Source of the DNA: Amphiscolops sp. MND2022
Lineage: Eukaryota
Direction of reading: 5' to 3'
Length of the DNA stretch: 64,000 nucleotides
NCBI GenBank assembly: GCA_964187785.1
Contig: OZ076409.1
Span: forward strand, 21,888,001 to 21,952,000
Part shown: positions 1,102-42,879 of the stretch, one piece after another
Layout of the letters: each line of letters opens with the position of its first letter
Numbering within the stretch: the stretch's first letter is position 1
Position numbers and translations under genes: made by a program
The notes under the pieces: generated by a model
The model's input: the letters and a program-made list of their open reading frames with translations, nothing else
What the model was told of the DNA's origin: nothing
Database searches by the model: none

Positions 1102-1329
1102 CTGGTAAGTGTTGTATTACTTCAATGCCCATATCTTTCAGATGAGACTGATCGCCGATGCCTGACAGCATGAGTATTTGAGGAGATCCAATGGAGCCAG
1201 CACTCAAAATCACTTCCTTGTGTGCCCGGATTTTGATGGGCTCGGAACCAACCGGCTGCTCAACCATCAAGCCAACCGCTTTATCACCCTCAAAAATGAC
1301 TTTGTTCACAGCTACTTTAGTCAATGTAC
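1102..1329 (-). CDS. CHDH: Choline dehydrogenase, exon 11 (gene continues beyond the window start)
   Basis: KEVILSAGSIGSPQILMLSGIGD...HLPG GMC signature 2; TTTCAG acceptor, G|GTAAC donor. Confidence 0.92.
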
Positions 1330-2699: not shown

Positions 2700-3121
2700 T
2701 TAGTCGGCGCTTCATGAAGTGAAACGCGACTACACTAGTGGCTTTTTAAATCACGACGAACTGACCAAAATAGTTCTCAAAAATTCTACGGTACTTTAAG
2801 GTGTCAAATTGGACCATTTGGGCCAAGGAACTTAACCCGAAGGACCCACTTTCAATTCTTTCGGCATTGTGAGACTTTTTCGAAATTTTTTAAATGTCTT
2901 CAAAGGGTCCCCTTCAACTTTTTGCGAAAGGAATGTTGAATAATCCGAAAGGGTCCTACCTTTTAACGCGCCAGGGGCCCGCGGTATCGGGGCCCGGCGC
3001 GCCAATTCGGTCCAACTTTTGGGTTTTTCGGGAACTGTAAAAGAATATTTGACACTTTGAAGTCCTTTTGCTATTTTTGAGCCTTGGATATGGCGCCGAC
3101 TTAAGCCGTTCCCGGCTGGTT
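2700..3121 (+). mobile_element. DINE-1/HINE-like family A copy
   Basis: TTTTAGTCGGCGC start with partial IR; GCGCCGACTT plus short stem-loop at the end. Confidence 0.75.
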
Positions 3122-3306
3122 AAATTTTAAGAGAGTTTCTTTCAGTCAATTGTTCGTGATTTTTCTAAGATGATGCAAGAACGATAGGCCTCAATAGTTG
3201 TTTTACAACAAGGAGTCTTTTACTGCTTAATGCGAAGCTAGAGATCAGTTGGTTCGCTTCGACTCTATTATGTTTACAAACATTGTGATCTATTCAAAGC
3301 TGCAAT

Positions 3307-4207
3307 ATGGCTAAATCTACAGATGAAATATCTCTTATGCTGAAAGAATCAGCAATTGATGAATCGATAAAAAGCATTCTTATTCCCATTATTGAAAACC
3401 TCAAAGTTAAAGATGCGGAGATTATCGAACTTAAAAATGAAGTTACCTATCTCACCAAAAAAGTAAAAGAGATGGAGCAGTACTCGAGCAAGGATTGTAT
3501 TATCTTTCGAAACTTACCATTATTGTCTGGACGGTCAATTACGGAGGAAGTGGTTACATTTATCAACAAGCAACTTGGAGTTCAGATGGGACCTAAACCT
3601 GGTAGCATGCCATGCGCTCTCTCCTGTGAGGAACCCAGCACAGCCACCTGCAATAATGGCTAAGTTCATTTACTTTAGTTTGAAAGATCGTGTATGGGGA
3701 CGAAAATCGTCTTTGCGGTTTTTTAAAAATCCCTTGAACGGTTACGCTGTTTATTTAACTGAGCGACTAACAAAAAGAGATCAAGAACTTGGTAATGAGG
3801 CAAACAACATGGGTATACATGTAACAACAAATAATTGCAAGCCTCAAGTTTGGAAAGATTGTGGTGATGGACAATTCATGAAACATACACTTGTTGACAG
3901 GGACGATCTATTGAAACTGGCTAGAACCCAGAAGCTGCGAAATTTTCGACAAAAAACAGTTGATGAAATAACTCCGCCAACGGAATATCAAACCAGCCGA
4001 GAACGGCCAAATGTGACACCAGCTAACCAAAGTGGAAAGAGACCATTCCAAGAAGATTCTCCAGTCATTGACACGTCTCTCTATGATAAATTGAAAGCTG
4101 TGCGCGGAGACGAAGGACGAATACTCGACTTAGTGGAGTCTCTCTTCAATCAAGAAAAAGAAAAAAAAAGAATCATTTCAAACGGCAGTTTTGAACAAAC
4201 TGATTAA
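3307..4207 (+). pseudogene. LINE ORF1 (frameshifted)
   Basis: Two overlapping ORFs; coiled coil plus EQYSSKDCIIFRNLP and YLTERLT motifs. Confidence 0.8.
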
Positions 4208-4236
4208 ATTGTACCTAATTAGTTTTCACGATTTGA

Positions 4237-7200: not shown

Positions 7201-8156
7201 AAAAAATTCCACTGGAGTTCCACAAGGATCGGTTCTAGGTCCTTTTTTGTTCCTGCTTTATATTAATGATCTTCCAAGTGTCTGCGAATCAAGTCAGATG
7301 ATGATCTTTGCCGATGATACAAGCATTATAAATGCTGGAAAACGTACTGGTGCTGCCATCAAAAATGACATAGTAACTGTATCCAAGTGATTCGAATCTA
7401 ACAAGTTGACTATCAATACTGATAAGTGCGAGGCAATGTTTTTTGGATGCGGCAAACCTAATAACTTGAGAGTCTTGTCGAAAGAGCTTGAGTACAAAAA
7501 TTCTTGTAAGTATTTAGGTGTCCACATAGATAAAAACCTGAGATTCAGAGAACACATTGATCATGTGGTTAAAAAACTGAACAAATTTTGTGGTTTGATA
7601 TATAGGGTAGGACACTTGTACCGGAGAAAATCTCTTCTAATGTTCTACAATTCAATTGCAAAATCAATCATTACTTATGGATTACTGTTATACGGTACCG
7701 CATATAAAACAAATATGACTAAAATAGAAGCTGTGCAAGGGCGAATCCTTCGGGCATTTTTTTCCAAGAAAAAATTCGATTCCTTGGAAAGTGTGTTTGC
7801 TGATAACAAAGTTTTGACTGTTTTTGAACTTTTCCAGGTAGAAATACTTAAAGAATTATTTCGTCAACTGAAATGTAAATCACCTCGTACTCTCTTGCAA
7901 CCTAATGAAAACTCTAATCCCAATTATCAAACAAGATTGCGTAAAAACATGTTTACCTGTATATAGTAGAACGGTTACTAATAAAAAGTCCTTGACCAAT
8001 TGTCTTGGAAAAGCATACAATTGGTTATTAAATCTAGATCTCGTTCCTTATTCACTATGGGAAATGTCTCCCCGACAAATAAAACAACTTATAACAAAAA
8101 TCACATCACTCTACATTATTGAGAACAAACAACTTTTAGAACTGTTCTACAACTGA
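4237..8156 (+). pseudogene. LINE ORF2 (APE-RT), fragmented and interrupted by a solo LTR
   Basis: Collinear APE and RT fragments; removing 5092-6153 restores DVNAQMKEISEF. Confidence 0.9.
5092..6148. mobile_element. Solo LTR (1,057 bp) inside LINE ORF2
   Basis: TG...CA termini (TGTTGGCGCC...GGCCGTTACA) and perfect 5-bp TSD GCACA (5087-5091 and 6149-6153); no coding capacity. Confidence 0.85.
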
Positions 8157-8807
8157 TAGACATAAACCTTTGAGCATCATTTTCCTCATTTGAATCTAAC
8201 TCATTGACTTCAACTTGGTTTCAGAAGGCGTAAACTAGAATAGCATCTCTGCTCATTTTACGTCCTATTTGGGTGCTTTTAAATACATTTTGTATTTTTA
8301 AAGCTACTCAATGAAATTAAATCTTATTCAAGGAAGAGACAAGACTTGTCACACCGGGAAACAAACATTCGAGCTTCGTTGCTAAACTAAGATGAAAGAA
8401 ACGTTTTTGCAGTAATCAGTGGCAGCATCTCTGCTTTTTTATTTTCCGCCCACATATAATGGGGGAACAAAATCATAATCTGTGTTGCGTTTTTTTTTCA
8501 AAATCTGCCAAATCTCCACGATCTCCATCCAATTCACTTAGTAACTAATTTAGTTACTTGACTATTTTAGTTACTATGGCTCAGTTGGTTAAGGCGGAGA
8601 AGTATCCTGGTGCTTAGCGGGCGTCTTGTTCATCATTAAAAGCCAATTTGGAGCTTCAAAATTGAGGTCACAAACAATTGATAGGTTTCATAATTCATAA
8701 AATTGAGTCGATACAAGCGGAAAATTTGAATTTGAAGCTAGATTTAAAAGACAGCGGAAGTGTCAACATGCGCACTTTGTGCCCTTGGATGTCTAGTTTC
8801 TCACATA

Positions 8808-9260
8808 AACAAGCCGGGACCTATCAGAGGCTCAAAAATAGCAAACGGACTTCAAAGAAGCAAAGTATTGGTGAATTGGGGACAATTTAATGAAAAATTC
8901 TATTTTGAAAAAGTCTCACAATCAAAGGGGAAAAAGTTTTTTGAAAGAAAACTGAAAAGGGGAACCTTTTGGGATTTTCAACGTCCATGCTGTCGCAAAA
9001 CTCCGAAAAAAATGAAGGGGGCTCTTGGGGATAATTTTTTTTCGAAAAAATGTCCCACAATGCCGGAAAAAACGTGGGACCTTTTAGTCTCGCCCGGTAT
9101 TGTATGTTACGCGGAAAAAAGGAAAAACCTTTTTGGTTCAGTTCCCTGGGCCAACAGGTACATTTTGGCGACATTTTAAAATTTGTAGAACTTTTGGTAG
9201 AACTATTTTGATCACTTGAGAGGTATCGACAAAAAAACTAACGACTAAAGCGCCGACTAA
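8808..9260 (-). mobile_element. DINE-1/HINE-like family A copy
   Basis: AAACAAGCCGGGAC...AAAGCGCCGACTAAAA. Confidence 0.7.
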
Positions 9261-25118: not shown

Positions 25119-25332
25119 CTGCAAACATATTCGGCAACTCAAAACTACTCCCAACAATTGCAACAGCTCACAAGAGCAACGCTTTTAATCTCGGAACAAG
25201 AGCAATGCTTTTAATATCGAAGTTAGAACGATGCTTTATAATTTGGACTACTACAAGAACCCAAATAATTACACGGAATAGAAACAACTAGACACCTTTG
25301 TATTGTGATACCGTCATAAAAATAATTCCTCA

Positions 25333-25546
25333 AGTAGTAGTGGAAATCCCGATACTGGCCAACAAAACGCCAAAAATTAAAAGTCCTCAAAACCATTGAT
25401 TTTGAGGACTTTTTAGAAGACAAATCATCAAAAATAGTGTTTTTATCATGAAGCAAAAATTCACTAACCTCTATGATGCAATGTGTAATAATAACACGTT
25501 GTTGTACAGCCAGCGTTGCTGTACAGCCAGCGTTAATGTACAACCA
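25333..25546 (+). repeat. Polinton left TIR (214 bp)
   Basis: Reverse complement of 39805-40018; contains a 14-bp-stem hairpin (25379-25413). Confidence 0.95.
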
Positions 25547-25626
25547 ACGTTGCTGTACAGCCAGCGTTAATGTACAACCAACGTTAATGTACAACCAACG
25601 TTGCTGTACAACCAGCGTTAATGTAC
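25497..25626 (+). repeat. 17-bp tandem repeat (CGTT(GC/AA)TGTACA(G/A)CCA(G/A)), about 7.6 units
   Basis: Direct inspection; only about 3 units at the right end. Confidence 0.95.
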
Positions 25627-25670
25627 CGGCGCATACGTTATTCTTATATAACTACAACTAACATTGATTC

Positions 25671-25925
25671 GTCTCCCATAGCTTAGTGGTTATAGCATTG
25701 ACTAAAGTTAAGGCTTCGGCCGGAGTGTTTGGGGTTCTTTTCTATTCAACGTCCCCCAGTCTTTGTTACAACTTACATGCTATGGGAGAATAATCACCAA
25801 TGGCACAGTTCTTAAAAAGGATAATCCCTGCTGTGGAAACTCTTAGTGGAACGGACTCCCGATGGGCTTTGAGTTTACCATAGGCATGTCAATACCAATG
25901 GCATGCCTATGGGTTTTGTATTTTT
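25671..25925 (+). ncRNA. Candidate structured Pol III-type non-coding RNA of the Polinton
   Basis: A-box TAGCTTAGTGG (25679-25689); 11-bp terminal stem 25672-25682/25779-25789; C(UUCG)G hairpin 25712-25721; second hairpin 25878-25912 followed by T-tracts. Confidence 0.45.
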
Positions 25926-25945
25926 CAACTTTTTCATTTTAATAA

Positions 25946-26758
25946 ATGTATGAAACTCCGTCTCTTCATAAGTTTGGTTATTCTAGTGAACAGCTAAAAC
26001 TGAGGGAATATCAGGAGCTAAAAGATATGATAAAAAGTCAAGAAAAATTAGCCCAAATAACACATTCCAAATTGAAAGAAGATTTGCAACGCGATTTTGA
26101 AAATGACATAGAAAATCAAGAGAAATTAATAGAAGAAAAAATACTGGACGTGAAAGGGCATCAAATACTAGACCCACAGGAAATTCAAGATGTTTTATTA
26201 AACACAAAGTTAATGAATGATATTTATTCCCAGTTTTCAGACCTTTCAAAAACCATAAATAAATTAGAACAAAATATGAAAAAATCTTTCGCCGAACAAA
26301 GAACTGCCTTAGTAAATGAGGTACTAAATTTAATACACAACAATAGTTTTGAAATGTTAACAGTCCGTAATTTAAAGTTTATGAGTCAGGTGGGTCAAGC
26401 TGGAATGATTTTAAATGAAGATGAAATAGATAATATTCTTAATAGCCTAGATCAAAATAAAATTACTATAACTAACAACATAATTCAACTGCTTTATGAC
26501 AAAGGTTTGTTCGATTCCTTTCCCAATAAAGATCAAGCTTTTGCAAATTATCTAACTTTCAGTGAAACATACCTCTTGGAAAAGTATGGAAAAACAATAC
26601 CTACTTCAGATGGTGAATATTATCTGTCTGATTTAGAATATTCTACCAGACAATCAATTCTGGAGTCATTGAAAAAAGACAATTTTAAAGACCTTGTTGA
26701 TATGAAACACAGAATGAAATTAACACCAACGGAAATAAATTTCATTTTATATGATTAA
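25946..26758 (+). CDS. Polinton hypothetical protein (helical, coiled-coil-like), 270 aa
   Basis: Intact ORF starting in TAATAAATG; no recognised motif. Confidence 0.7.
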   Translation: MYETPSLHKFGYSSEQLKLREYQELKDMIKSQEKLAQITHSKLKEDLQRDFENDIENQEKLIEEKILDVKGHQILDPQEIQDVLLNTKLMNDIYSQFSDLSKTINKLEQNMKKSFAEQRTALVNEVLNLIHNNSFEMLTVRNLKFMSQVGQAGMILNEDEIDNILNSLDQNKITITNNIIQLLYDKGLFDSFPNKDQAFANYLTFSETYLLEKYGKTIPTSDGEYYLSDLEYSTRQSILESLKKDNFKDLVDMKHRMKLTPTEINFILYD

Positions 26759-26761
26759 TAA

Positions 26762-27470
26762 ATGGAACAAAAACTATCCCTCCTTGACCCCAACGGCCTC
26801 TCCCCCCACACCATATGATGTAGAATCAATGATAAATAAGCGATTGCAAAGCGCGTTGCAAAACGAATTACAAAAAGTAAATAGCTTCAATAATTCTATT
26901 CAAAACATTAGTCTAATGATGAAATATTATGAAATGGAAGAAAAGAAATACAAACAGAAATACAACAAATACAAGATAATAAATAACCTAATTAACTCCC
27001 TTGGCATTATAGTGATTGGAACAACTTCAGCATCAATCTCACTAAGTATTACTGGTGTGGGTATTATAGTTGTTCCAATCGCTGCAGGAGTTGGTTGTAC
27101 AACTGGTATTCTTGTTAAGATTTGTTCCAGTTATTTGAAGAAAAAGGAGCAAAATTATAAACTTAAGTACACTATTATTCAGAAGACTCTTGACGACTTT
27201 AGACAACTTTATGTCACTAGCCTAAACGATAATCATATAGATGAAAATGAATATCACCGATTTGTGACTCAATTTGAAAATTATCGCGAAGCTTCGCAGG
27301 TAGCTTCACAGGAAATTCACACAAAATCACGCGCAGCTTCGCGCACAGCTTTGCATACAAAATCACAAGTAGCTTCACACGCGACAGCTAACGCGGCAGC
27401 TACCGCGACAGCTAACACAGCTTCACACACACAACCAACAATACCACTTAAACCACACAATTTTTTATAA
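26762..27470 (+). CDS. Polinton membrane protein (coiled coil plus hydrophobic hairpin); probable frameshift near the start
   Basis: Hydrophobic LGIIVIGTTSASISLSITGVGIIVVPIAAGVGCTTGILV; the motif-bearing ATG at 26762 (MEQKL) is out of frame with the main ORF (26751-27470). Confidence 0.7.
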
Positions 27471-27582
27471 TTAATTTATTCAATTTTAACATAAAAAATA
27501 AAATAAAAATTAACACTAATAATTGAAAAATATACTATTGAAAAATATGCTGCTATTAAATTCATAATTTTATTATAAATAA

Positions 27583-30500
27583 ATGGAGAACTGCAGTAGT
27601 TGTAATTCTGATTATAAAAAAGCTTACAAGTCCGATCATCTAAAATCAATAAAACATTTACAAAAATTAAATCAATATTATTGCAAAAAATGTAATACAT
27701 TTATGCCATTGTCTGACAAGTCTAATCATCTAAATTCAGATGAACATAAAAACAAAACCAAACAACAACGCGAAGCTACACAAATTTGGTGTGAAGATTG
27801 TGGCAAATATATAAGTAATTCAAGACATTTCCAAAGTGAAATTCACACGTTAAGAAGTCAAAACAACACTACAAAAAACACATTTGGTAATACACTACAT
27901 GATTCTGGAACTGGCGTAGAAATAATTGTGAATGAAAAAACATACATTAAACTGAGAGTAAATCCAACAAATCATCTTGAAGAACAGATTAATGATTTAC
28001 TAAATAAAAACTACTTTCCCCGATACAAGTTCCAATTGAGTTATTTAGCGAAGTTTTCAAAAATAGTTAATGGGCAGAGCTTCGCAGAAGAAATTGTATT
28101 TCACAAATGGGTTAAATCAGATTTTAATTACAATCACACGCAGATTGCCTTCGGCACAAACCCAAATATTCACAACATATTAATGCAGAAATTAGATGAT
28201 GAACAATTAGAAGGATCAGGTTTTGTGTTAAACGGTATTATCAATGTTATAATGGAGGTATATAAAGTCAATGATATTCAAGCTACTTCATGGGTTGAGT
28301 TGCCAGAAAAATATAAGAATAATAAATCAATTATAAATATAAAAAATGATGATCAATTTTGCTTTTTGTGGTGCATCCTAGCACACCTTTTTCCCGTTGA
28401 GGATCATAAAAATAGAACATCAAATTATTCAATGCACACGAACAAACTCATTTTAAATGGTTTAGAATTCCCCATGAAAATTAAAGATATTCCCAAGTTT
28501 GAAAACTTAAATAATTTAAACGTAAATGTATTTGAACTCACAAAAACAGTTTTAACACCAATTCATATTAACACAAACTATGATCAACCACAAATAGATT
28601 TATTATTATATCAAAATCACTATTGCTTAATAACAAAATTGCATTGTCTAATAAATAAGGATTCGCACATGAAATGGGTGTGTAGAAGATGCCTGACTGC
28701 ATTTAGTTCTGAGGATATTCTCAGTCAACACATTGATCGTTGTCAAAAACAACAACCAACTAATATCACATTCAGTTGGAAGGATCACTTAAAGTTCGAA
28801 GATTATAATATGAAAGTTCCCGTACCAATAAGAGTATATGCAGATTTTGAATGTATTAATCAACCCGCAAATGACCACGAAGCTGCGGTAGCTATCGCGC
28901 CCATAGACAAGTCCAAAGTATTATTTAAACAAATTCCAATTGCAGTAGGATTTTATATAATTTCACCATTTGGTAATAATTACAGCTCATACTTTGGTGA
29001 ATCGTGTGTAACATGGTTTGTAAATGAAATGTTGACTCTAGAAAACATTGCTAGTAACTATTTTGAAACAAATTTACCTCTTGAAATAACTCCTGAAGAA
29101 CACCAATCATTTCAACAATCCAAAGTGTGTTGGCTTTGCGAACGAAAGTTAGACGGTGAGGGCGAAGCTACGCATAGCGTTCGAGATCATGATCATCTTA
29201 CAGGCAAGTACCGAGGAGCAGCCCACAACAAATGTAATTTAAATTGTAAAAAAAAGTCAAGTTCGTTTGTTCCTATATTTTTCCATAATTTCAGTGGTTA
29301 TGATTGTCATTTAATTTTTGAAGAACTCTTAACATCAGCTTATAATCTAAAGTTACCAATAAATATTATACCAAAGTCAATGGAAAATTATGTAAGTGTG
29401 CAAGTAGGTTGTTTAAGGTTTTTAGATTCATACAGATTTTTGAGTAGTAGTCTACAAAAACTTATAACATCATTAAATGATTTTCCTTATATGCAAATTG
29501 AGGGCCTAACTGATGATTTATTTAAGAAAAAACTAGCTTATCCATACGAAAAATTCAATCTTAACAACCTGCATGAACCACTAAATCTAACAAAAGAGGA
29601 CTATTGGTCAACATTAACACAATCTCACCCATGTGAGGATGATATAAAAAGAACCCAACAATTGATTGACACTTACAACATTACAACAGCACAAGAACTA
29701 ACAGAATTGTACTGAAAAATGGATGTACTACAACTCACTGACGTGCTCGAAAACTTTGTTGAGAAGTCTACACTTGAATACGGCATCAATCCTTTGTACA
29801 GTTACTCTTTACCTGGTTATACATGGAAAGCTGGTTTAAAACTTACTAAAATTAAATTAGATTATATAAAATGTAAAGAATTATTATTACTTTTAGAAAA
29901 CAATATACGTGGAGGAATTTCAAGTGTTATGGGACCCAGATTCATTGAGTCAAATGAAAATACTAAATTACTGTACATTGATGCAAATAACTTGTATGGA
30001 TGGGCAATGAGTCAATACCTTCCTACTGGAGACTTTAAAAAGATGCGGAGCTGTCACGAAGCTATGCAATCTGATTCTGCACTGATGAATGAAATTGCAG
30101 AAGACATTTTGAATACACCAGATGACAATGAATTTGGATACTTTATAGAATGTGATTTAGAATATCCAGCAGAAATTAAAGAAAAAACCGAAAACTTTCC
30201 ACTTTGTCCTTATCAAACAAAAGCCGATCCAAATCTTTTCTCAGAATACATGAACAGTGTAAAACAATCCAACTACAAACCAACCGAGAAACTTATGTGT
30301 GACCTAACAAATAAATATAATTATATGATGCACTACAGGATGTTCAAGTTTTACACCCAGATCGGGATGAAAGTAACAAAGATTCACACAATCTACCGGT
30401 TCAAACAATCACTTTGGTTAGAAAAATACATTAATCATAACACACAAAAACGCACCAAAGCAAAAACAAACTTTGAGAAGGACCTCTACAAATTAATGAA

Positions 30501-31452
30501 CAACGCTTTCTTTGGTAAGACTATGGAAAATGTTAGAGACCGGACTAATTTAGAGTTTATCCCTCACACCAATATTGATCAAATAATAAAAAGACAATCG
30601 AAGTTAAGCTTTAAAGGAATTACTAATCATTACTCTGAATTCAGTGTTTACAAGTTTGATAAGGAAAAAGTAATTTTTGATAAACCAATATACTTGGGGT
30701 TTAGTGTTTTAGAACTGAGTAAATTGTTAATGTATGAGTTTTATCATCACAAATTACAACCATATTATAACACAGACGTCAATCTGCATTACATGGATAC
30801 AGACTCATTCATTCTAAGTATTAAAACTGGAGACCTTATAAATGATTTGGAATACTTCAAAGATGATTTTGATTTCAGCGAGCTCGACCCAAGTCATGAG
30901 TTGTACAACTCAATCAACAAGAAAGTTATAGGTAAAATGAAAATAGAAACATCACCAATTATTGAATTAGACAACTTCGTAGCTTTGAGATCTAAATCAT
31001 ATTCTTTTAGCTATGGCTCAGCACAAAAGCTAACACAAAAGTCAAAACAAAAAGGAATACAACATACACCGATTTATTCACAATTTATAAATTCATTATT
31101 TAACTCTGAAACAACAACTGCAACTAATTATTCTATTAGAAGTAATGCTCACAACTTAACTGTTCAGAAACAAGATAAGCTAGCTTTGAATCCTTTTGAT
31201 GACAAGCGTGTGTACTTGAATCCAATACAAAGTTTATCATGGGATAAACACACACAAAAAGGTGATTGTCCTTGTATACTTTGTATAAAATTAGTTGGTT
31301 TGTATTACACCGAACTGAGCACAAGGGATGGCAAGTCCGCGCAGCTTCGCCTTCGGGATGAAGAAATATACTATAACATTTGGACTCTGAAAGAAAAATT
31401 GAATCATCAACAGCTTTTAAATCTGATAAGTGATCGGGCCCATTTATTGTGA
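27583..31452 (+). CDS. pPolB: Protein-primed family B DNA polymerase with one in-frame TGA (29713-29715)
   Basis: N-terminal Zn fingers; Exo motifs YADFE and FHNFSGYD; EndoVII/HNH-like CWLC...RDHDHLTGKYRGAAHNKCN; Pol motifs YIDANNLYG, KLMNNAFFGK, YMDTDS; the two track ORFs are in the same frame. Confidence 0.95.
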
Positions 31453-31605
31453 TAACTATCGTGATAACTGGCGTGACGCACAGTTTCGCGATAGCTTTCA
31501 CACACATCTTTTATAATTAGAAATATCATTTATTATCATCATTTATTATCATTTATCATCATTTATAATTATTAATCTATGATTCATCATTCCTCTCATA
31601 TCAAA

Positions 31606-32853
31606 TCAAATGAGGTCAAAATGCCTTTGCCCATCACTACTAATACTTATTAGTTTTGGGGTTAATACAAGTGCATAAGCTATATAATCTGCTACATCAA
31701 TGGCAGCATTAAATTTAAATTCTAAACGGATTGGTTGACTCGCAATGATATCCTTTTGTTTGCTGAGGTCAAATACATAAAAATTATAATTTGTTCTGAA
31801 TTTGTTCAAATCAATGAAGGGATTGAGTAAGTTAGTTTCACTATTCAAGTGATAAAAGTTTTCAATTTCACTGTATGCTTGATCATATTTGTCGCGGTCG
31901 TAATCACATTCTATCCCATCATCGGGATATTTTTCTGATCCTATTTTACAAACAGCATTACTAATTGGCAACCGGTCAAACACTGCATTATCATGAACCT
32001 GAGAATCAATTTTATTTCTAGCTTGAAATCCAACAACCACAAAAGTTGGAGTCGATGTTCCCGAAGATCCGCCTGCGTTGCCTAATTCAAATGTCCAATT
32101 CGAATTCGTGTTAACATCTTTTCTAAAAATAATTCGTTCCGTGTAACTCAATTCGGTTGGATCTTTATTTAGAATTTGGTCCATGACAAGTTGTTGGTTT
32201 TCGATACTAGGAACATAGTGTGGAATATACCAACCAATGTCTTTAATAACCACTTTTGCAGCATCCACTCCAACACTTCTTAAAATGGCGTCATTGTTAG
32301 TGTTCCGTTTGAGAGTTAATGTGTAGCCCAACCCATAAGTTATTTTTTCTTGATCAGCAAATCCAAACAAGTCTTTTAGTTCTATTCTCACAAAAAAGGT
32401 TCCTTTCTCATTTTTGTTGTTTGTTAGTTCTTGTCTTCTGATAGTAGTATCTTCTTCAAACCCATACATTAATTGACTTGTGGATTTAGTGCTTGTCAAA
32501 CACTTGTACATTAAAGAAATCAAGTGCAAATTGTCAACTTTTTCTAGGTGTTTCCCACTAGAAGTTGTTAATTTGGCTTCACTAAATAGAGAGATTGGCC
32601 CAAAGTTAACCAATCCAATTTCATCACCATCAGCAAATCTTGTATTATTGTTTTTAAGTACTTCAAATTCTAGACTTATGAAACTATTTTGTAAACATAT
32701 GTATGCATCTTCTCTTGGGAAACTAATTGTAGTATTCGAGTTTGTATTGTTAATTGTTGCCAAACTACTTGGACTATACTTTATGAAATCAATTTTATGA
32801 ATAGGTTTTTCGAGCGTGTATTTATTTTTTAAAGAAAACATATCTGTGTTCAT
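31606..32853 (-). CDS. Polinton major capsid protein (double jelly-roll), 415 aa, intact
   Basis: Size, beta-rich pattern and Polinton MCP-like segments (TPTFVVVGFQ, KYPDD, FYVFDLSKQ) in viral context. Confidence 0.8.
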   Translation of the reverse strand: MNTDMFSLKNKYTLEKPIHKIDFIKYSPSSLATINNTNSNTTISFPREDAYICLQNSFISLEFEVLKNNNTRFADGDEIGLVNFGPISLFSEAKLTTSSGKHLEKVDNLHLISLMYKCLTSTKSTSQLMYGFEEDTTIRRQELTNNKNEKGTFFVRIELKDLFGFADQEKITYGLGYTLTLKRNTNNDAILRSVGVDAAKVVIKDIGWYIPHYVPSIENQQLVMDQILNKDPTELSYTERIIFRKDVNTNSNWTFELGNAGGSSGTSTPTFVVVGFQARNKIDSQVHDNAVFDRLPISNAVCKIGSEKYPDDGIECDYDRDKYDQAYSEIENFYHLNSETNLLNPFIDLNKFRTNYNFYVFDLSKQKDIIASQPIRLEFKFNAAIDVADYIAYALVLTPKLISISSDGQRHFDLI

Positions 32854-32890
32854 TTATAATAAAAAAAATTATTGCGAAAGCTCCACGAAA

Positions 32891-33780
32891 CTACGTGGAA
32901 CACTGCTCAAATTTGTGGAAAATATTCATACTTTCTAACGTTTTGTTGTTAGAGTCAAAGTCGAATATGCTACTTAAAAGTTCTTGTTCATAGTATTTTC
33001 CTTGAATAATTCCTCCGTTTTCATCATTTAGAGTGTATGTTACTGGGTTTGTTTTGTTGATGTTGTGTATTTTAAAAAGTTCTCTATTCCAATTTGTTGT
33101 ATAACCTTTTGAATAAATGTTCCTTTTGTCAGGAACTCTTACAAAATCCCCCACTTGGAATTTGGCGAAGCGGCGCGGTTGTTTCGGTTTATTAACAAAG
33201 GTAGGTGGATCGATTGGTTTTTTATTCGCTTCAAAAGGTGTCATTTTTGTTGTGGTATGGACACGATTATTATACTTTTGTAAAGCAGCATCAAGGCGAT
33301 TCAACCAGCTACCTTTACCCTCAATATACATTGGTTCCTTAATTAAGTCCAGAAGTGTTCTATTGAAGCGTTCAACAGAAACAGCTTTCAAATCTGAATT
33401 AGTTGAATAAATTTGAATGTTTTGCTCTTTTAAATAGTGTAAAAATGTTGTGTTGTAAAACTTTTACCTCTATCACTCCAAATTTTGTGTGGTTTTCTCT
33501 TCTCTTTTTCAATGAGACCTTTTAATGCAGTAGTTGTACTTTTTCCTGATTTATCTTTGAGGGGAATCGCCCATGCATATTTAGTATGGTTGTCAATTAT
33601 TGTGAAAATAAACTTGTAGTTTTTGTTGTATTTGCTTAAGTTTGAGCGATCAATTAAATCGATACTCCAACATTCATCTTTATAGTGAGTTTGTATTTGA
33701 ATTCTTTGAAACTTCTTGATTACAGGAGAGAATATTTCTTTAACAATTTCTTTCTTGCGAAGCCCTGCATTTTGATTCAT
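32891..33780 (-). CDS. Retroviral-like (rve) integrase, 1-nt frameshift near 33462
   Basis: WSIDLID, TIIDNHTKYAW, WSDRGK(E)F, VERFNRTL DDE core; C-terminal FQVGDFVRV; no chromodomain visible. Confidence 0.93.
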
Positions 33781-33814
33781 TTATTATAGTTTTATAACAA
33801 TTTTTTATAAATAA

Positions 33815-35016
33815 ATGAATAATGATTATTGCTTGCAGAGCTATAGAAATAATTATCAAGGTGAAGGAGACGGCGCGAAAGCTGGCGCGGGAGCCGATGT
33901 GGCCAACAAACTGTATTGGTATCAGAAAACACAAATTTATAAAGTAATCACAAATCCTATGTTTTTTGTATGTTTAATTATATTTATAGGTATTATTGTT
34001 GTAATATATTGGAATTATATTCGCCCTAGACAGTTTAAAACAATTTATAAAAAACTACTACAATTTGCAGGGTTCAAATACTCTCATCTGACAAACCAGG
34101 AACGCGAAGCCCCCCAGGATACACGCGAAGCTACGCGTGAAGCTGAAGTTCATGGCAATTCCCACTTCATAATTTATGGTAGTAGTGGCTCTGGGAAGAC
34201 AAGTTTTTTAAAGCATTATTTGGCACAAGTTGCAACACAACGCCAAAGAAATTACGTAGTTTTCGGGAGAGATGAACGTGAGTTTCCCACTCAAAATTTT
34301 GTACCACTACTGCAGTTGGAGAAAGTTAGTATTGAATCACTTACTAATAAAATTGTTGTACTGGATGATGCAGGTGCATACGAAAGTCTTAAAACAAAAG
34401 TAGAAGACTTATTTAGATACGGTAGACACATGAATATAGTAGTAATTTATCTCGCTCACTATGCAAAGGATGTTCTTCCAATCGTGAGGGAAAATTGCTT
34501 CAAAATATACTTAACAATTAATAACCCAGATAACTTCTTCGAGTCGATTGTACAAACTTATGCGTTAGCTTCCGCGATCAAAGACGGGTTTAATTGGAAA
34601 TACTACCGCGATCATTTGGAGTTTGGTATAATTGAATTTGACACAAGGAGTCAGAAATACAAGATTCTAAACGATAAATACAACTTAATTTATGATTCGA
34701 GCAAACGAAGTAAATGGGGCCCCCAGAACAACTTGTTGCTTATGAAAGTTACTTTTTCACTGGTGATGAATACAACAGACTCAAAATTTTCTTAGAGGAA
34801 ATGTCCGACCAGACAATCGAAATAACACCAATCAACATAGCTTATTATTATGTGTTTTATTGCAAACAAAATAATATTAAAGTAAATGAATCCAAAATAG
34901 ACAACTACGTTGAGCGTATGCAAAAACCACTAATTAGTGATTCAGTTAAAGAGGACTTTAAAAATTTAATTTATGATCAGGCAAAAAGTTTTACTAAAAA
35001 TAAACTGAGTAATTAA
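33815..35016 (+). CDS. A32/FtsK-like ATPase 1 with N-terminal transmembrane helix; frameshift near 34720
   Basis: TM segment MFFVCLIIFIGIIVVIYW; Walker A GSSGSGKT; Walker B VVLDD; RYGRH; VREN; ORF 34714-35016 continues it after a C-run. Confidence 0.85.
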
Positions 35017-35029
35017 CGAGAAATTAACA

Positions 35030-35300
35030 AAAAAATATAGTGATTCTTAGAGAAGTTTAGAGAAATTTAGTGATTCTTAGAGGCATTTAGTGATCTCTAA
35101 GAATCTCTAAATTTCTCACTAAATCACTAAGGTTTCACTAAGAGCATTTATTTTCACTAAATTTCACTATAATCTCTAATCTTAGAGAAATGAATACTCT
35201 TAGAGGAATTTAGTGAAACCTTAGAGGGATTTAGTGATTTTGCTTAGTGATTACATAGTGATTACATAATGATTATTAGAGGAATTTAGTGATTTTTTAC
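35030..35300. repeat. Intergenic array of TTAGTGA/TTAGAG motifs in both orientations
   Basis: Many TTAGTGA, TCACTAA, TTAGAG and CTCTAA copies in about 270 bp. Confidence 0.85.
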
Positions 35301-35307
35301 TAAATAA

Positions 35308-36378
35308 ATGAATTGCTTAATTTGTAATAAAAGTAGTGAAAAAAGTTTGTGTGATGATTGTAGTAATAAAAAAAGATGTAAAGATTGTAATACATCAAAA
35401 TCCAATACAAATTTCTACATCTACAAAAATGGTAAAATGTATAGTACATGCATTCAATGTTTTAATAAAAAAGTGAGGTGTGAATTTTGTAATAAGGAAA
35501 TAAATAAGAGTTATTTAAGGTCACACGTCAAGAAGCAACACTATAATCAACACTATAATTATAATCAGCACTATAATCAGCATACTGGGGGTGATTTGCT
35601 TCCACGACAGCTATCGCGACAGCTATCACGAGAGCTACAGCGAGAGTTGCCACGAGGCGTGTCTTCACACAATAAAAATAATAATAACGCGGAAGCTAAC
35701 GCGAAAGCTATCGCGAAAGCTATCGCTAATGATGATAATGCGGGAGCTAACGCGGGAGCTAATGCTAATAGTGGTGTGAACGAAACTAATAGAACATTAA
35801 TAGTTGGGCCATCATTTTGTGGTAAGACTCATTTGTTGTTGAATAAATTACGATTGATTCGTTTGGAAGATCCAGAGAAACAAATTCGTATCATTACAAG
35901 GAGTCCGGAACAATATGAGGATGTGGAGCTTTATATTCAAGGAATAGAAGTGGAAGAAAATGTGGGGGATTTGGAAGAGTATAGGGGGTGTTGTGTAGTA
36001 TTTGATGATATGTTAGACTCCAACCAGAAATTGATTGATCCATTTTTTACTAGGGGAAGACACAAATCTTGTGATGTTTATTATTTATGTCAGAGTTATT
36101 TTGATGCACCAAAAAAGACAGTTAGAAACAATTCGAATATAATAATTTTATTTCAACAAACACTGAAAGATGTAGAACATATTCATAGGGACATATCAGG
36201 TTTTGATATGTCTTATGAGGAATTCAAAAGTTTGTGCAGAGAAGCATGGAACGAAAAATTCAACTACCTTTTAATAAACAGATTGGAAGATAAAAATGGG
36301 AGTAGGTACAGGATTTGTAATGAATCTAATCCAAATTACAAGATCTTTAATCCACAAACTGATCCTTTAAGTAATTAG
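35308..36378 (+). CDS. A32/FtsK-like ATPase 2 with N-terminal Cys-rich/C2H2 Zn-finger region, 356 aa
   Basis: Several CxxC pairs and CEFC...HVKKQH; Walker A GPSFCGKT; Walker B VVFDD; TRGRH; QSYF; VRNN. Confidence 0.9.
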   Translation: MNCLICNKSSEKSLCDDCSNKKRCKDCNTSKSNTNFYIYKNGKMYSTCIQCFNKKVRCEFCNKEINKSYLRSHVKKQHYNQHYNYNQHYNQHTGGDLLPRQLSRQLSRELQRELPRGVSSHNKNNNNAEANAKAIAKAIANDDNAGANAGANANSGVNETNRTLIVGPSFCGKTHLLLNKLRLIRLEDPEKQIRIITRSPEQYEDVELYIQGIEVEENVGDLEEYRGCCVVFDDMLDSNQKLIDPFFTRGRHKSCDVYYLCQSYFDAPKKTVRNNSNIIILFQQTLKDVEHIHRDISGFDMSYEEFKSLCREAWNEKFNYLLINRLEDKNGSRYRICNESNPNYKIFNPQTDPLSN

Positions 36379-36394
36379 GGACTTCGTGAGGAGA

Positions 36395-37477
36395 TTAGGA
36401 GATCAAGTTGCTTCGTGCGTAGCTCTGCATATTTTGGTGTTGAGAAGGTGATATGCATTCATACTCCAATAACTTGTCTATAATTGCAATAATTTGTTCA
36501 TTAATCAGAAAACTATCATTTCCTCCAACTTTTTCAAAATAAAGTAGTTTCAATTGATCCACTAATTCGTCTGGGTCAGATGGGAGGAAAATGTACTGTT
36601 GTGTGGAGCTTCGTGTGGAACTTCGCGAAGTTTCGCCATTTGCGTAGCTTCGCAATCCACTTCCTGTGAAGCCCTGTGTATAGCTCTGTGATTGGCCTTG
36701 TGTGAAGCCTTGTAATTGATAGCGAGAGTATAATTCTTTAATAAATTGATATCTGATCGATTTTTTATCTCCATAATTTAGATCATATTTCATATCATTT
36801 AGGAAGTTATAAATTGGGCCCCAGTTATTTATTGGTTTGTCAAATTGTGTATTAGTTATAAAATATTGAAGATCTGGGTTACTAAGATCATATGAATTTC
36901 CATTCTCGAAAGTCATTGTTGAACCTTTAATTAGTACTTGTTGTGGGTTATGGGGATTAATTATGAATAAATTAGGATTGTCTTGTGCGAAGCTCTGCGT
37001 AATTGGTTCTAAACTAAATTGACTTTTGTTTTTCTCATTAGGTAAATTAGAAACTGTTTTTACAATATTAGAATCAACCTGGTTGGAAGTAACAAGACTC
37101 GTAAGAAGCTGATTATTACGATTCGTAATTTCATCATATTCTTGTATTCCTTCTTTAATTGATTTCTGTAAATTTTTATTCAAAGCGTTACTCGATTCTC
37201 GAATAGCCTGTGTTTGATTTTTTATTGCTTGTACTGTTGTTTGTGAAGCTGCGCGGGTAGAATCATGTAGTGCTTGTATTTGTTTTTCAGATAATTGTTT
37301 CTGGTTTTCAGTAGCTTCCACCTGCTTTGTAGTAACAGGTTCAAAAACTTCTTCAAGGTCATAATGAAAGTCTTGCTTCCCTAGTTTCTCTTTTAACCTT
37401 TCTTTGCGTACTGAAGATTTTGTTTCTTGTAATTTTTTCAATTTTTCCAAGTCATCTCGGGTGTGAATTGAATACAT
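36395..37477 (-). CDS. Conserved Polinton hypothetical protein (coiled coil; C-terminal DPDELVDQLKLL...GND motif), 360 aa
   Basis: Intact ORF; C-terminal motif resembles one recurring in animal Polintons; GSG putative protease site. Confidence 0.7.
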   Translation of the reverse strand: MYSIHTRDDLEKLKKLQETKSSVRKERLKEKLGKQDFHYDLEEVFEPVTTKQVEATENQKQLSEKQIQALHDSTRAASQTTVQAIKNQTQAIRESSNALNKNLQKSIKEGIQEYDEITNRNNQLLTSLVTSNQVDSNIVKTVSNLPNEKNKSQFSLEPITQSFAQDNPNLFIINPHNPQQVLIKGSTMTFENGNSYDLSNPDLQYFITNTQFDKPINNWGPIYNFLNDMKYDLNYGDKKSIRYQFIKELYSRYQLQGFTQGQSQSYTQGFTGSGLRSYANGETSRSSTRSSTQQYIFLPSDPDELVDQLKLLYFEKVGGNDSFLINEQIIAIIDKLLEYECISPSQHQNMQSYARSNLIS

Positions 37478-37490
37478 TTATTAAGTATAA

Positions 37491-37985
37491 TTAGTGGATT
37501 TTCCCCAGATACAGGCCTTTACCATTAGTTCTTGCTTTTCTGTTTGTGTTGCTTGTGTTAGCTGCTTTGCTGCCTTTACTCGACAATGCTTCAGCTTTGT
37601 ATAACCCCTTCCCTTGATGAACAAATTTAATAACGTCAGGGGCAGTTGCGGCAATTAATCGTGGATTTTTACTTGCTGCTGCAGTTCCAATATTTGCTGC
37701 TATTTCTAGTGCGCGGCCTGGATTATTGAGTATTTTCTTTCCAACATTTTTGGCTGCAGAACCTAAATGTTTGAAAAAGTCCCCCAATCCTTCCCCATCT
37801 ATTGTTCGTTCAGATACAATTAGACTCTTATTTCTGTTACATATCATGCAGTTGCCACGTAATGTGTGTACGGGCCTGCCCATCTGTATCCCAGTGTTTG
37901 TAATTTCTCCATGAATATTTGTGGTGGGAGAATAATGTTTTCCACCAACACAATATGAATTATTTATAAATTTATTATAACTCAT
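37491..37985 (-). CDS. Putative virion core/membrane-lytic protein, 164 aa
   Basis: N-terminal Cys motif, then GEG followed by amphipathic LGDFFKHLGSAAKNVGKKIL; GKGLY occurs twice. Confidence 0.65.
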   Translation of the reverse strand: MSYNKFINNSYCVGGKHYSPTTNIHGEITNTGIQMGRPVHTLRGNCMICNRNKSLIVSERTIDGEGLGDFFKHLGSAAKNVGKKILNNPGRALEIAANIGTAAASKNPRLIAATAPDVIKFVHQGKGLYKAEALSSKGSKAANTSNTNRKARTNGKGLYLGKIH

Positions 37986-38064
37986 TTATTAGAAAAAAAT
38001 TATCATTTTTGTGGAGCTTCGTGAAAGCTATCGCGAAAGCTATCGCGAACGCTATCGCCCAACA

Positions 38065-39125
38065 TCATATTTTAATAATTTGAATTGTGAAGGTGAGTGT
38101 CTCCCCGTTGAAATCAACTGAATCATGATTAGAGTCCTCAAGGAAAAATTGAATGGTGTCCAGTCGTGTTTTGTTAATTGATTTGTACAAAACAGTTGTG
38201 GGTTCTTTTATAAGTTTATATCCGGGAGGTGCGCTTAAATTGAAAGAAAATAAAATTTGTTCTCGTATACCATTAACAATTGAACCATCTACACAGTCGC
38301 ACTTCAGATGAACTTTATCGGTGGTTGTTATCATGACTGGTTTTTCTGAAGTGTGAGTTCCGGATGGGTAATCACGTTGTGTAAAACCCAGGACTTTGTT
38401 AAGTTTGGAGTTAAAATGAATAGGGTTTGAGGTTGTTAAAACTGATTTCATCGATATTGTGTCGGGTATTATGTTGAATTCAATACTAAAAACTGTAAGA
38501 TCTTTTTTGAATTTTGACTTATCATCTAATTCATAACCTGAATCAGTAATTATTTGTTTTATGGTATTATTTATTTCAATCAGTTCGTATACACCTGGAA
38601 CTAAATTTATATCAATAAACTCATTCTCAATTTCAAAGTTTGGAATAGTTATAGGAATGTTGCTCTTCATTTGCTTTAAATAGTCAAAATCTTTTTTCGG
38701 AAGTTTCTTCTTTTTTTATAACTAGTAAGAAAATATATATTAGCTTTTTCTATAAATTCATAGTAAAGTTTATTATTTTCTAAATCATAAGTTTCAAATA
38801 GTTTTTTTATATTTGGCACCACTCCTGTGTCAAACTCAAGTGCATCGAGTTGTCGATCATTTAGAATAATCTGTAGTTTGTTATTGCTGTTAGTGATATT
38901 ATAAACTGTATTGTACACTTCTAAACTTGTTACTCCCATCATCCATTTTTCATTTAAAATGAGAGGAACATCAAATGAGAAAGATTCTTTTTGTTTATTC
39001 ATTTTAAATTCTAGAGTTTCTTGTGGTTTAGAATGAGTATTTTCAACTATTTCTTGATTAGATTTTGCAATACTTAAAAGAAGAGATTCTTTTTTATCAT
39101 AAGTTATGAAGGTGGATAGATCCAT
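38065..39125 (-). CDS. Minor capsid (penton-like) protein, frameshift near 38700
   Basis: KWMMGVTSLEVYNTVYNITNSNNK, INLVPGVYEL, VHLKCDCVDGSIVNG, VDFNGETLTF; split over ORFs 38676-39125 and 38065-38670. Confidence 0.78.
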
Positions 39126-39128
39126 TTA

Positions 39129-39359
39129 TTATAGATTAAATTGTTTGAATCCACTAGCGGAAATGTTATTTATAAATTCTTGCCTATCTTTTGATAATGT
39201 TTTCTTATGCGATAGCTTCCGCAAATTTGTTGTATTTTTTCCATGATTTTGATTGTGAAGCTGTTCTGTGGAGCTGTGCGTGAAATTATGCGCGTTAGCT
39301 GTCGCGAAGCTGTGCGAGATAATTTTACATTGAGTTGAATAATTATTAATTTTCTTCAT
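39129..39359 (-). CDS. Small basic Polinton protein, 76 aa
   Basis: Starts in TAATAAATG; start overlaps the protease stop and stop abuts the penton start motif. Confidence 0.6.
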   Translation of the reverse strand: MKKINNYSTQCKIISHSFATANAHNFTHSSTEQLHNQNHGKNTTNLRKLSHKKTLSKDRQEFINNISASGFKQFNL

Positions 39360-39780
39360 TTATTAAGTTTGAAAGTTTGGTAGTATAAATTTAGTACTGC
39401 ATTTTTGAACCCAATTTTATTTGTGAGATACAGTGTGTATAAACAATACGCCGCGCAATAACTGTCGTTGGTCTGAATTTGATATTCTGAATAAATACCA
39501 TTTTTAATATGATTAAGTATATTAGTTGGGGGTGGGCATCCATATGAATCAAATAATTTTGATTTGTAAACATAACCCAATGTGTTCCCACTGAGGGATG
39601 TAAGTTAACTATACCACTGGTAGTGTTAAACTTATCATCTCTCATGTATATTCCACACACTGTATTTATTTCGCCGGAGGCACCAAGCCTATCAAGTATT
39701 TCTTTTATTTTTACATTGGAAGTTGCTTCGTTTTTTAGTCCGTATTTTTCAACAAATTCTTTGAATGATAAAGAGTTCAT
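39356..39780 (-). CDS. Adenain/Ulp1-like cysteine protease, 1-nt frameshift near 39552
   Basis: GTHWV (His), FDSYG (Asp), QIQ...YCAAYC (Gln/Cys) split over two overlapping frames. Confidence 0.9.
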
Positions 39781-39804
39781 TTATTAGTTATTTTTCATTG
39801 TTGC

Positions 39805-40018
39805 TGGTTGTACATTAACGCTGGCTGTACAGCAACGCTGGCTGTACAACAACGTGTTATTATTACACATTGCATCATAGAGGTTAGTGAATTTTTGCTT
39901 CATGATAAAAACACTATTTTTGATGATTTGTCTTCTAAAAAGTCCTCAAAATCAATGGTTTTGAGGACTTTTAATTTTTGGCGTTTTGTTGGCCAGTATC
40001 GGGATTTCCACTACTACT
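39805..40018 (-). repeat. Polinton right TIR (214 bp)
   Basis: Reverse complement of 25333-25546; no mismatch seen by eye. Confidence 0.95.
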
Positions 40019-40095
40019 TCCTCAGAGTAGAGCATCTACCATCAATCACAATTTTCTTGATAGATTTCGTGCATGACGTAACAAAATAAACTAAC

Positions 40096-41232: not shown

Positions 41233-41479
41233 TATTACCACAACCTCCCGGTTAACACGGGAATATTTGCAACCTTAAACAAGACGGGAATGTCTAAAGT
41301 CGGCGCTATATCTAAGGCTCAAAAAGCGCAAAGTTTTTAAAACTGTAAAAGGGGGACCATTTGGGCTTCTTGAAAATCCAGTTTGTTGCAAAATATCGAA
41401 AAAAAGTGAAGGGGGACCCTTTAGAAACATTTTCGAAAAAGACTTACAGTGCCGAAAAAATTCAAAGGGGGGGCATATA

Positions 41480-42770
41480 CAGTGCTGTGATAAAAGAATG
41501 GAACCACTGTTTAGGAAAAAATATTGGAACGACAGATTTATTTCGAAATTAATAGTCAACAATCAACAAAAACCAAAACATATTATGAATATAACATCAA
41601 GAAGTCTTCAATATTTAGTGTTTTTACCATTTCTGCGTAATACTTCATTCAGTCTTCTGGGAATAGACTCATAAAGAGTTTCTATGAAATCTTGCGGAAT
41701 TTTTCGAAATTCTTCTTCGCAAGTGTGCCAAAGTTCGTCTACAGTTTTCGGGTTCATTTTGGAGACCTTTTTCTTCAGAAAACTCCATACATGCTCGATA
41801 ATATTGAGGTCTGGAGACTGAGCCGGCCAATTTTCAAGACTTTCTACAGCATTTTCCAACATCCAAGTTTTTGTTAAGGTAGCTGTATGAACCGGAGCAT
41901 TGTCTTGTTGAAAAATTTCGCCCAGGTACATGTTCGGAAGGAGATTTTCTTGCAAAATTTGGACGTAAGAGACGGCATTCATGTTTCCAGACACTTTTGC
42001 CAGTCCTTTTCTGCCATCCGATGAGATGAATCCCCATAACATCAGTTTTTTTCCACCGAATTTTTTTGTTTTGCAGAGATATTTTTCTTCTATGCCACTT
42101 TTGAGAGGTCGTCTGACTAGTATTCTGCGATTTGGCGACAGTTCGATTATTGTCTCATCGGAAAAAATAACGTTTTTCCAAAAAGTTGTCGTTTTCAGTA
42201 CGAATTCCGATGCGAACTTTTTTCGAAAATGTCTATGACTTTGGGTCAATAACGGTTTCCGAAAGGCTACTCTTGCATGAAGTCCATAATTGAGAAGTGT
42301 TTTTCGCACAAGACTAGTTGAACAAGTGTTTTCGGGCTTCAGATGTTGTAAAAGTTCCGTTGAAGACTTTTTTGGATGGTTAATGGACAAAGTAATAAGT
42401 TTTTTTTCTTCCTTTTCTGTCAATTTTCTTGGTCGGCCGGGGCTTTTTTCATTTGCAAGATGGCCTCTGGACTTGAAATTCTGAATGACATTGAAACAAG
42501 ATGTTTTCGGAATGTTTAAAGTAGCTGAAATTTCAAATAAACTTTTGTTTTCGTTGTGCAGACTAATAATTTGTTGTTTGACTTCTATGTCATATCGAGG
42601 CATCTTTCATCAATGATTGACAAACCTAAACTGGCGTAGATTCAGCCTTTGTTTACCTAGATGCAATTTTCTCAGACACCCAGGCGTTTTAATAGAAAAT
42701 TATTTGCTAATATTTCACTGTTCCAATATTTTGTAACAATCAGAGGTTCCATTCTTTTATCACAGCACTG
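41480..42770 (-). mobile_element. Intact Tc1-like DNA transposon (1,291 bp)
   Basis: TA TSDs; 26-bp perfect TIR CAGTGCTGTGATAAAAGAATGGAACC, imperfect to about 51 bp; intact transposase. Confidence 0.97.
41608..42603 (-). CDS. Tc1-family transposase, 331 aa, DD35E
   Basis: HTH with GRPRK; FSDET, QQDNAPVH, SPDLNIIE. Confidence 0.97.
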   Translation of the reverse strand: MPRYDIEVKQQIISLHNENKSLFEISATLNIPKTSCFNVIQNFKSRGHLANEKSPGRPRKLTEKEEKKLITLSINHPKKSSTELLQHLKPENTCSTSLVRKTLLNYGLHARVAFRKPLLTQSHRHFRKKFASEFVLKTTTFWKNVIFSDETIIELSPNRRILVRRPLKSGIEEKYLCKTKKFGGKKLMLWGFISSDGRKGLAKVSGNMNAVSYVQILQENLLPNMYLGEIFQQDNAPVHTATLTKTWMLENAVESLENWPAQSPDLNIIEHVWSFLKKKVSKMNPKTVDELWHTCEEEFRKIPQDFIETLYESIPRRLNEVLRRNGKNTKY

Positions 42771-42879
42771 TAGTCCCGTCAGGTTTTGTATCTTACGTTA
42801 AAAATTGAGTACATGAAAGGGGGATCCTTTGCACTAACTTAGATGCGTTTCCGCTTGCCGGTCAAGTAGTCACTACTTG

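Follow-up and report, generated by a model that had tools for sequence, protein, structure and literature searches.

The late and intermediate promoters of vaccinia and mpox viruses (PMC11980589, PMC11423596, PMC5294985) carry a TAAAT that overlaps the start codon and in most cases has a G behind it. One class has in addition a T at the tenth base upstream, the other an A/T-rich element about 15-19 nt upstream, and at some starts TAAA(T/A) is not fused to the ATG. We found features of the same kind at the gene starts of a Polinton in Amphiscolops sp. MND2022, in a window of 64,000 nt (assembly GCA_964187785.1, contig OZ076409.1, positions 21,888,001 to 21,952,000 of the forward strand; positions below are counted from the first base of this window). 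The present case differs from the poxviral one in that it concerns a 15-kb integrated element without a recognised RNA polymerase, in that its promoters are predicted from sequence, and in that its A-rich core reads TTSAAATAA, while vaccinia and mpox have TAAAAA.

Promoter sharing with helpers is already known in protist virophages. Mavirus, the EMALEs and Gezel-14T (PMC8547959; 10.1101/2022.07.28.501842) are, like the present element, small and capsid-encoding, and they carry the promoter motif of their helper giant virus; mavirus also integrates. They differ in their protist hosts, in their known Mimiviridae-type helpers and in their motifs, TCTA or AAAATTGA. The entomopoxvirus-associated Polinton-like viruses (Barth et al. 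2024, PMC11296320) are of Polinton type and have been proposed to be hyperparasites of animal poxviruses, but the link is physical (occlusion bodies), and the text of that paper contains neither 'promoter' nor 'motif'. Animal Maverick/Polinton elements (Adintoviridae; PMC11131425) share with ours the terminal inverted repeats (TIRs), the 6-bp duplication, the protein-primed polymerase B (PolB), the rve integrase, the double jelly-roll capsid and the ATPase; the motif, in contrast, is not a feature of 100 other PolB-bearing loci and is present in the clade described here and in one further contig (L128). Finally, the cytoplasmic virus-like elements pGKL1/2 of yeast (PMC6211774) are linear DNA with a TAAAN initiator, which yields 5' poly(A) leaders by slippage; unlike our element they exist unintegrated and bring a pox-like RNA polymerase of their own. 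We found no report of TAAATG or poxvirus-type promoters in Polintons in the literature covered, subscription journals and supplements lying outside this coverage (the supplementary motif figures on EMALEs could bear on the point). What would be new here is the presence of poxvirus-type promoters in an animal Polinton.

A fixed word at the gene starts

All 12 gene starts of the window element are preceded by ATAA, and 11 of them read AATAAATG, the capsid gene start at 32853 having TTATAAATG. TAAAT(G) thus overlaps the start codon at 12/12 starts, as in poxvirus late promoters. Over the whole element ATAA stands before 21 of 500 ATGs, i.e. before 9 of the 488 that are not gene starts (1.8%), and in the host flanks before 17 of 1530. 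At the rate at which ATAA occurs in the AT-rich 36 nt upstream of the same starts (10/396 positions), the probability of finding it at 11/11 starts is about 3e-18. The preliminary description of this DNA, which had reported the motif at all 12 starts, was therefore borne out on this point. It had picked the start at 26762 partly because of the motif; an MEQK N-terminus in 4/4 homologues viewed now backs this start independently. It had also stated that the host gene start at 51856 lacks the motif, and this start, on the minus strand, indeed reads GATT-ATG.

The window element belongs to an abundant family (family A), for which 1471 first-look candidates were obtained with a capsid DNA query; the 40 that were scored had identities of 94-100%. 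In 10 other copies TAAATG was kept at 100 of 110 readable starts (counted by eye; four more were unreadable). At the starts 39125, 37985 and 33780 the upstream bases vary between copies and TAAATG is constant. A second host family (B) has a different gene order, with a capsid 41-43% and a PolB 52% identical to those of the window. Among the first ATGs of open reading frames (ORFs) of at least 60 aa in five copies of family B, 64/100 had TAAATG and 16 had TAAA(T/A) a few bases before the ATG; the 20/100 with neither pattern look mostly like internal starts of broken genes. A subfamily with a capsid 80% identical and rearranged genes also obeys the TAAAT rule. We examined a mosaic third host family (D; four loci, L199-L210) after the rule had been fixed: TAAATG was found at 10/12 starts, and the other two had TAAATA just upstream. 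Family D combines an A-like structural module (capsid 80% identical to that of the window) with a B2-like polymerase module (95%), and is accordingly not fully independent of A and B. It shows that families with shared promoters have exchanged modules. We also observed, at L154:1-3602, a decayed family-A segment adjoining a family-B element. Some starts (L149:2166, L152:1683, L155:1417 and in family D) read TAA-ATA-(GAA/AGA)-ATG, with an in-frame ATA at the usual position of the ATG.

Beyond these families the word is uncommon. TAAATG was found at 33/544 starts of 102 distant polymerase-bearing loci, and two of these loci were enriched: L128, with 7/7 starts at 38% GC (p 5e-11), and the sister element L033, with 3/5. 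The remaining 100 PolB-bearing Polinton-like loci had it at 23/532 starts, the AT-rich ones (no more than 34% GC) at 16/169, giant-virus loci with VLTF3 at 20/178 and host genes at 0/4. In a quick PolB tree of 47 rows, from which metagenome and viral loci with fewer than five ORFs and any match shorter than 330 aa were excluded, A, B and L033 formed one clade (support 99), and L128 stood apart, with a placement that was not resolved. The nearest ATPase relative of L128, L192, had TAAATG at 1/11 starts. Searches of viral contigs with capsid or ATPase queries gave no close relatives of the element. To judge from these comparisons, TAAAT(G) is a fixed word and a trait of the clade. The motif first described, ATAAATG or AATAAATG, holds for the window family, but the word that is fixed across families is TAAAT(G) instead.

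L128 (IMGVR_UViG_3300020002_000020, 1-9034) is an unrelated metagenomic Polinton-like contig, in which a protease-like domain is fused to the integrase. Several of its starts have (A/T)TAAG 5-30 nt upstream, which resembles the baculovirus late motif. In many other Polinton-like loci, among them L116, L117, L121, L086 and L034, a T-run is followed by TAAA(A)n that ends 0-6 nt upstream of the ATG, which may represent a more relaxed variant of this promoter type.

Two kinds of upstream element

Upstream of the word, TTT at -14 to -12 was present at 21/47 starts versus 7/76 non-start occurrences of TAAATG (p 8e-6), and T at -13 at 31/47 versus 27/76. These non-start controls are mostly coding DNA, which weakens the comparison, and each upstream stretch was therefore also rotated as a test. 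One TTT register was common to 13/27 non-duplicate starts of A and B1 (p 2e-4); in family A alone 6/12 starts shared the register -15 (p 0.013). Vaccinia late promoters have a conserved T at the tenth base upstream of TAAAT, which is -13 in our numbering (PMC11980589, PMC11423596; consensus quoted second-hand there). At 9/12 window starts a T stands at this base within the T-run.

Family B has another element, a core TT(C/G/A)AA(A/G)WAA, which ends 11 nt before TAAAT (at -24) in 6/15 B1 starts (p 2e-4), the pattern having been picked by eye on family B itself. At offset starts, whose ATG follows TAAAT by 2-3 nt, the core kept its register with TAAAT and not with the ATG in 7/16 cases. Such behaviour would be expected of a promoter element and not of a translation signal. 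In vaccinia intermediate promoters an A/T-rich stretch precedes TAAA by 15-19 nt (PMC11980589, PMC11423596, PMC5294985); the family-B core lies at about this published distance, with different letters. It was found mostly before the polymerase, zinc-finger and U-box genes of family B (replication and accessory genes), and the T-run mostly before capsid, minor capsid, ATPase and membrane genes (mostly virion genes), both being present at only 5/80 starts. The start signal is bipartite.

A near-identical 20-nt promoter (with a spacer of the AATTTAATCTATA type) is found upstream of window position 39125, at L159:2621 and at L161:1683; the genes that it precedes differ between families A and B, which suggests promoter reuse. 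The poxvirus early-terminator word TTTTTNT was counted 5 times on coding and 53 times on non-coding strands, a difference confounded by the A-richness of coding strands, and its placement at 3' ends was inconsistent. An early-type word, WAWWTGAAA, was not persuasive, being upstream of 1/12 window starts (PolB) and 3/15 B1 starts; AATTGAAA lies 63 nt upstream of the window PolB gene.

Structure and genes of the element

The element occupies 25333-40018 (14,686 bp). Its left TIR (25333-25546, plus strand; 214 nt, perfect) begins with AGTAGT and has 17-nt tandem repeats at its inner end, reaching about 25630; its right TIR (39805-40018, minus strand) ends with ACTACT. The left target-site duplication, TCCTCA (25327-25332, 6 bp), is matched by an identical hexamer at 40019-40024. 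By its TIRs, duplication, polymerase, integrase, capsid and ATPase the element is a Maverick/Polinton (Polintoviricetes). It encodes a double jelly-roll capsid, an rve integrase, an A32-like ATPase, a protein-primed polymerase and eight further genes, and no RNA polymerase was recognised among its ORFs. The frames of six genes are broken in the window copy, and the long ORF starts at 29719, 33331, 34714 and 38670 belong to internal pieces of broken genes, not to extra genes.

At the left end, a T-run and TAAATG (25932-25948, plus strand) make up the start signal of a 270-aa ORF (25946-26758, plus) that had no Pfam match, a fold prediction with a pLDDT of only 46 and nothing usable in the ESM Atlas. 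The next gene, for a putative membrane protein with a hydrophobic stretch (26762-27470, plus; TAAATG start), is broken near its 5' end, the motif ATG opening 18 codons and the remainder lying in ORF 26751-27470. The PolB gene (27583-31452, plus; TAAATG start), with N-terminal zinc fingers and an EndoVII domain, consists of two ORFs (27583-29715 and 29719-31452), and was assigned through its 52% identical family-B homologue, which matches PF03175 (E 1.3e-13). The double jelly-roll major capsid protein (31606-32853, minus; PF21738, E 7.5e-22) has an intact frame, and its start word follows a T-run. Four tandem ATAAATG lie after its stop (31529-31562, minus), facing the 3' end of the polymerase gene; they might serve as poly(A) signals or as antisense starts.

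The rve integrase gene (32891-33780, minus; PF00665, E 2.1e-9; TAAATG start) is in two ORFs, 33780-33430 and 33331-32891. A head-to-head spacer of 34 nt (33781-33814), with one TAAATG on each strand and no gene upstream of either, separates it from the gene of the A32-like packaging ATPase (33815-35016, plus; PF04665, E 9.4e-9; TAAATG start), which has an N-terminal hydrophobic stretch and whose frame is interrupted towards the 3' end, giving ORFs 33815-34795 and 34714-35016. It is followed by a zinc-finger and second ATPase-like protein with a P-loop (35308-36378, plus; T-run, then TAAATG), recognised by BLAST to ATPase-like ORFs of relatives. The other genes are on the minus strand and all have TAAATG starts: a 360-aa conserved Polinton ORF (36395-37477) with homologues in distant Polinton-like loci; a 164-aa ORF (37491-37985; T-run before the word) with an amphipathic glycine/lysine stretch, which we take to be a PX-like virion protein; a putative minor capsid gene (38065-39125; two ORFs), so labelled from its position and homologues; a 76-aa ORF (39129-39359); and a putative cysteine protease gene (39363-39780), whose frame is broken and whose start adjoins the right TIR, with no gene upstream. 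Neither the protease nor the minor capsid gene had a Pfam or PDB match, and the label of the former, presumably an adenain-like protease, derives from a GTHWV motif that we take to be diagnostic and from its position.

Short GC-rich repeats (GCGAAAGCTATC-like) at 27295-27430, 35603-35790 and 38008-38069 vary in length among copies; they sit in genes and spacers and give Ala/Thr/Ser-rich inserts. Outside the element, the window contains a Tc1/mariner transposon (41478-42772), whose 331-aa transposase frame is intact and whose inverted repeats measure 53 nt. Elsewhere in the host assembly there are tandem 3.6-kb histone repeats at no fewer than 150 scored places; only H3 and H4 starts were picked up in the loci examined. 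Wnt genes, also found in the assembly, mark the host as an animal.

Families B and D encode a zinc-ribbon/helical protein of 171-205 aa (L162:1667-2182, L159:2902-3432 and homologues), with a predicted fold of pLDDT 83, no significant PDB sequence match and nothing usable in the ESM Atlas. In more distant relatives it is fused to an upstream small ORF (P0466). Family B also has several zinc-finger genes (L161:2806-3369 and related ORFs), one with a weak HNH match, which shift position between copies, like homing endonucleases.

Who reads the promoters?

The reading that we prefer, with a probability of roughly 55%, is that poxvirus-like helper machinery transcribes the element, TAAAT(G) serving as a post-replicative-type initiator, and that the element is a virophage-like Polinton. 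A pox-like or related large DNA virus would provide the RNA polymerase together with late/intermediate factors; initiation would take place inside the AAA of TAAAT, and slippage there would add a 5' poly(A) leader, as it does in vaccinia and in the yeast virus-like elements (PMC6211774). This leader would supply the 5' untranslated region for which TAAATG leaves no room, and would replace the unfavourable T at -3. Infection by the helper would switch integrated copies on, as endogenous mavirus is activated by CroV infection (PMC8547959), and replication, packaging and re-insertion would then be the work of the polymerase, capsid, ATPase and integrase that the element encodes. The term 'pox-like' refers to the type of promoter and not to the family of the helper, because TAAAT-like initiators are also found outside poxviruses. 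The sequence evidence for the promoters is strong and that for a virophage lifestyle indirect. Of the earlier proposal, the poxvirus-type promoters are well supported; the need for a pox-like RNA polymerase from a co-infecting virus is inferred from them, no helper sequence having been found in the host assembly.

Several observations weigh against this reading, in addition to the coding nature of the controls and the choice of the core by eye. Copies and homologous genes are not independent in our counts. The A-rich core was found at 1/12 window starts, that at 39125 (TTCAAACAA, register -25). TAAAT also occurs in ranavirus DNA polymerase promoters, and TAAAN is used by the yeast virus-like elements (PMC6211774), so that the word is not unique to poxviruses. 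Profile searches of the host assembly with PF04947, PF04451, PF03288, PF04441 and PF03003 gave no match (four of the five without a positive control), and Rpb2 matches there were confined to three intron-split genes. A promoter scan for a helper candidate, covering 80 viral loci of which 73 were scored, brought none to light, with at most 4 core-plus-initiator starts per locus (best 3/10 and 4/14). Integrated copies are nuclear, while poxvirus late transcription is cytoplasmic, and we have no account of the activation step. Coral polintoviruses, moreover, were expressed in heat-stressed and control samples alike (PMC11131425).

Could the word be a mere host signal in a compact genome, i.e. an AATAAA poly(A) signal, a TAA stop-start coupling or an A-rich translation context? 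AATAAA is indeed contained in 11/12 window starts, base -4 is A at 35/47 starts, and TAAA lies within 10 nt of the ATG in many other Polinton-like loci (73/169 starts in AT-rich loci). AATAAA, however, is found at only 7/16 B1, 4/12 B2 and 1/7 L128 starts; it is present at head-to-head and TIR-adjacent starts without an upstream gene, and absent from the first 120 nt behind the stop codons of PolB, the two ATPases and the 360-aa gene, which agrees with the earlier rejection of a poly(A) signal. Stop-start coupling fares no better, as TAG or TGA precedes 0/100 first ATGs of family B although 54 of the corresponding stops are TAG or TGA, and TAAAT-ATG starts place the TAA out of frame. Nor does the word make a good Kozak context: it gives T at -3, and A is the commonest base there in other Polintons (266/532); the host H3, H4 and Tc1 starts have GAG or AAG before the ATG and 51856 has ATT (four starts only). 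Against base composition stand the AT-rich controls given above. We therefore regard this explanation as very unlikely; neither composition nor Kozak bias, stop-start coupling or a poly(A) signal accounts for TAAAT(G). The strict AATAAA of the window family, left over by the promoter reading, may mean that these bases serve a second purpose. Least probable of all, in our opinion, is that the promoters are relics of a helper-dependent ancestor and that the present families spread without using them. The absence of a helper from our searches, the decay of many copies and the motif at just 3/5 starts of the sister element L033 would fit, but TAAATG is retained where the upstream bases were replaced, among copies 80-95% alike, and across subfamilies with changed gene order. 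Such retention amid replaced neighbours points to recent selection on the word.

A helper-free alternative deserves more attention, though we still think it unlikely: large-DNA-virus-type promoters might be read in the nucleus by host RNA polymerase II (Pol II) under the guidance of a late-factor homologue that the elements themselves encode. In families B and D this factor would be the zinc-ribbon/helical protein, which would act in trans on family A, where its gene was not seen. Mriyaviruses may offer a parallel, as they keep VLTF2 and VLTF3 without an RNA polymerase (PMC11253617), and no helper was found in the host assembly; the same source states that VLTF2/VLTF3 homologues were not detected outside Nucleocytoviricota. 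In a Foldseek search against viral structures, poxvirus VLTF3 gave the two best rows, and five further rows among the top 31 were also labelled VLTF3, but all VLTF3 scores were below significance (E 0.017-0.022, TM 0.22-0.24), and a PDB-wide fold search gave no Z of 5 or more. The A2L zinc ribbon was weakly matched by 7/30 members (best E 0.022). Alignment with 75 VLTF3 sequences was collinear over 126 columns, KYYE-like residues included; the HHalign probability, however, was 30-35%, falling to 0.9% once the zinc ribbon was removed, and the last third of VLTF3 is missing. A Pol II start 1-2 nt before the AUG would moreover give an mRNA that is hard to translate unless slippage occurs, which we count against this alternative. 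The protein could equally act on the machinery of a helper instead of on host Pol II.

To return to the helper-dependent reading, the element resembles a virophage in its promoter type and may be a satellite. A fuller version of this reading, which we offer as possible but tentative, is that the clade consists of integrated virophages of an undiscovered poxvirus-like virus. They would copy its intermediate and late promoter classes to time their replication and virion genes; some would use a shortened VLTF3-like factor to tune or jam late transcription of the helper, and the copies would form an inducible antiviral reserve.

The finding touches on the open question of how animal Polintons live, be it as autonomous viruses, as transposons or as satellites of large DNA viruses. 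In protist virophages, promoter sharing is the molecular hallmark of dependence on a helper; here it would occur in an animal host, with signals of poxvirus type that fall into two promoter classes. The promoter type would predict the kind of helper to seek, and TAAATG scoring, by which 2/102 distant loci were enriched, may provide a simple sequence test for sorting Polintons by lifestyle.

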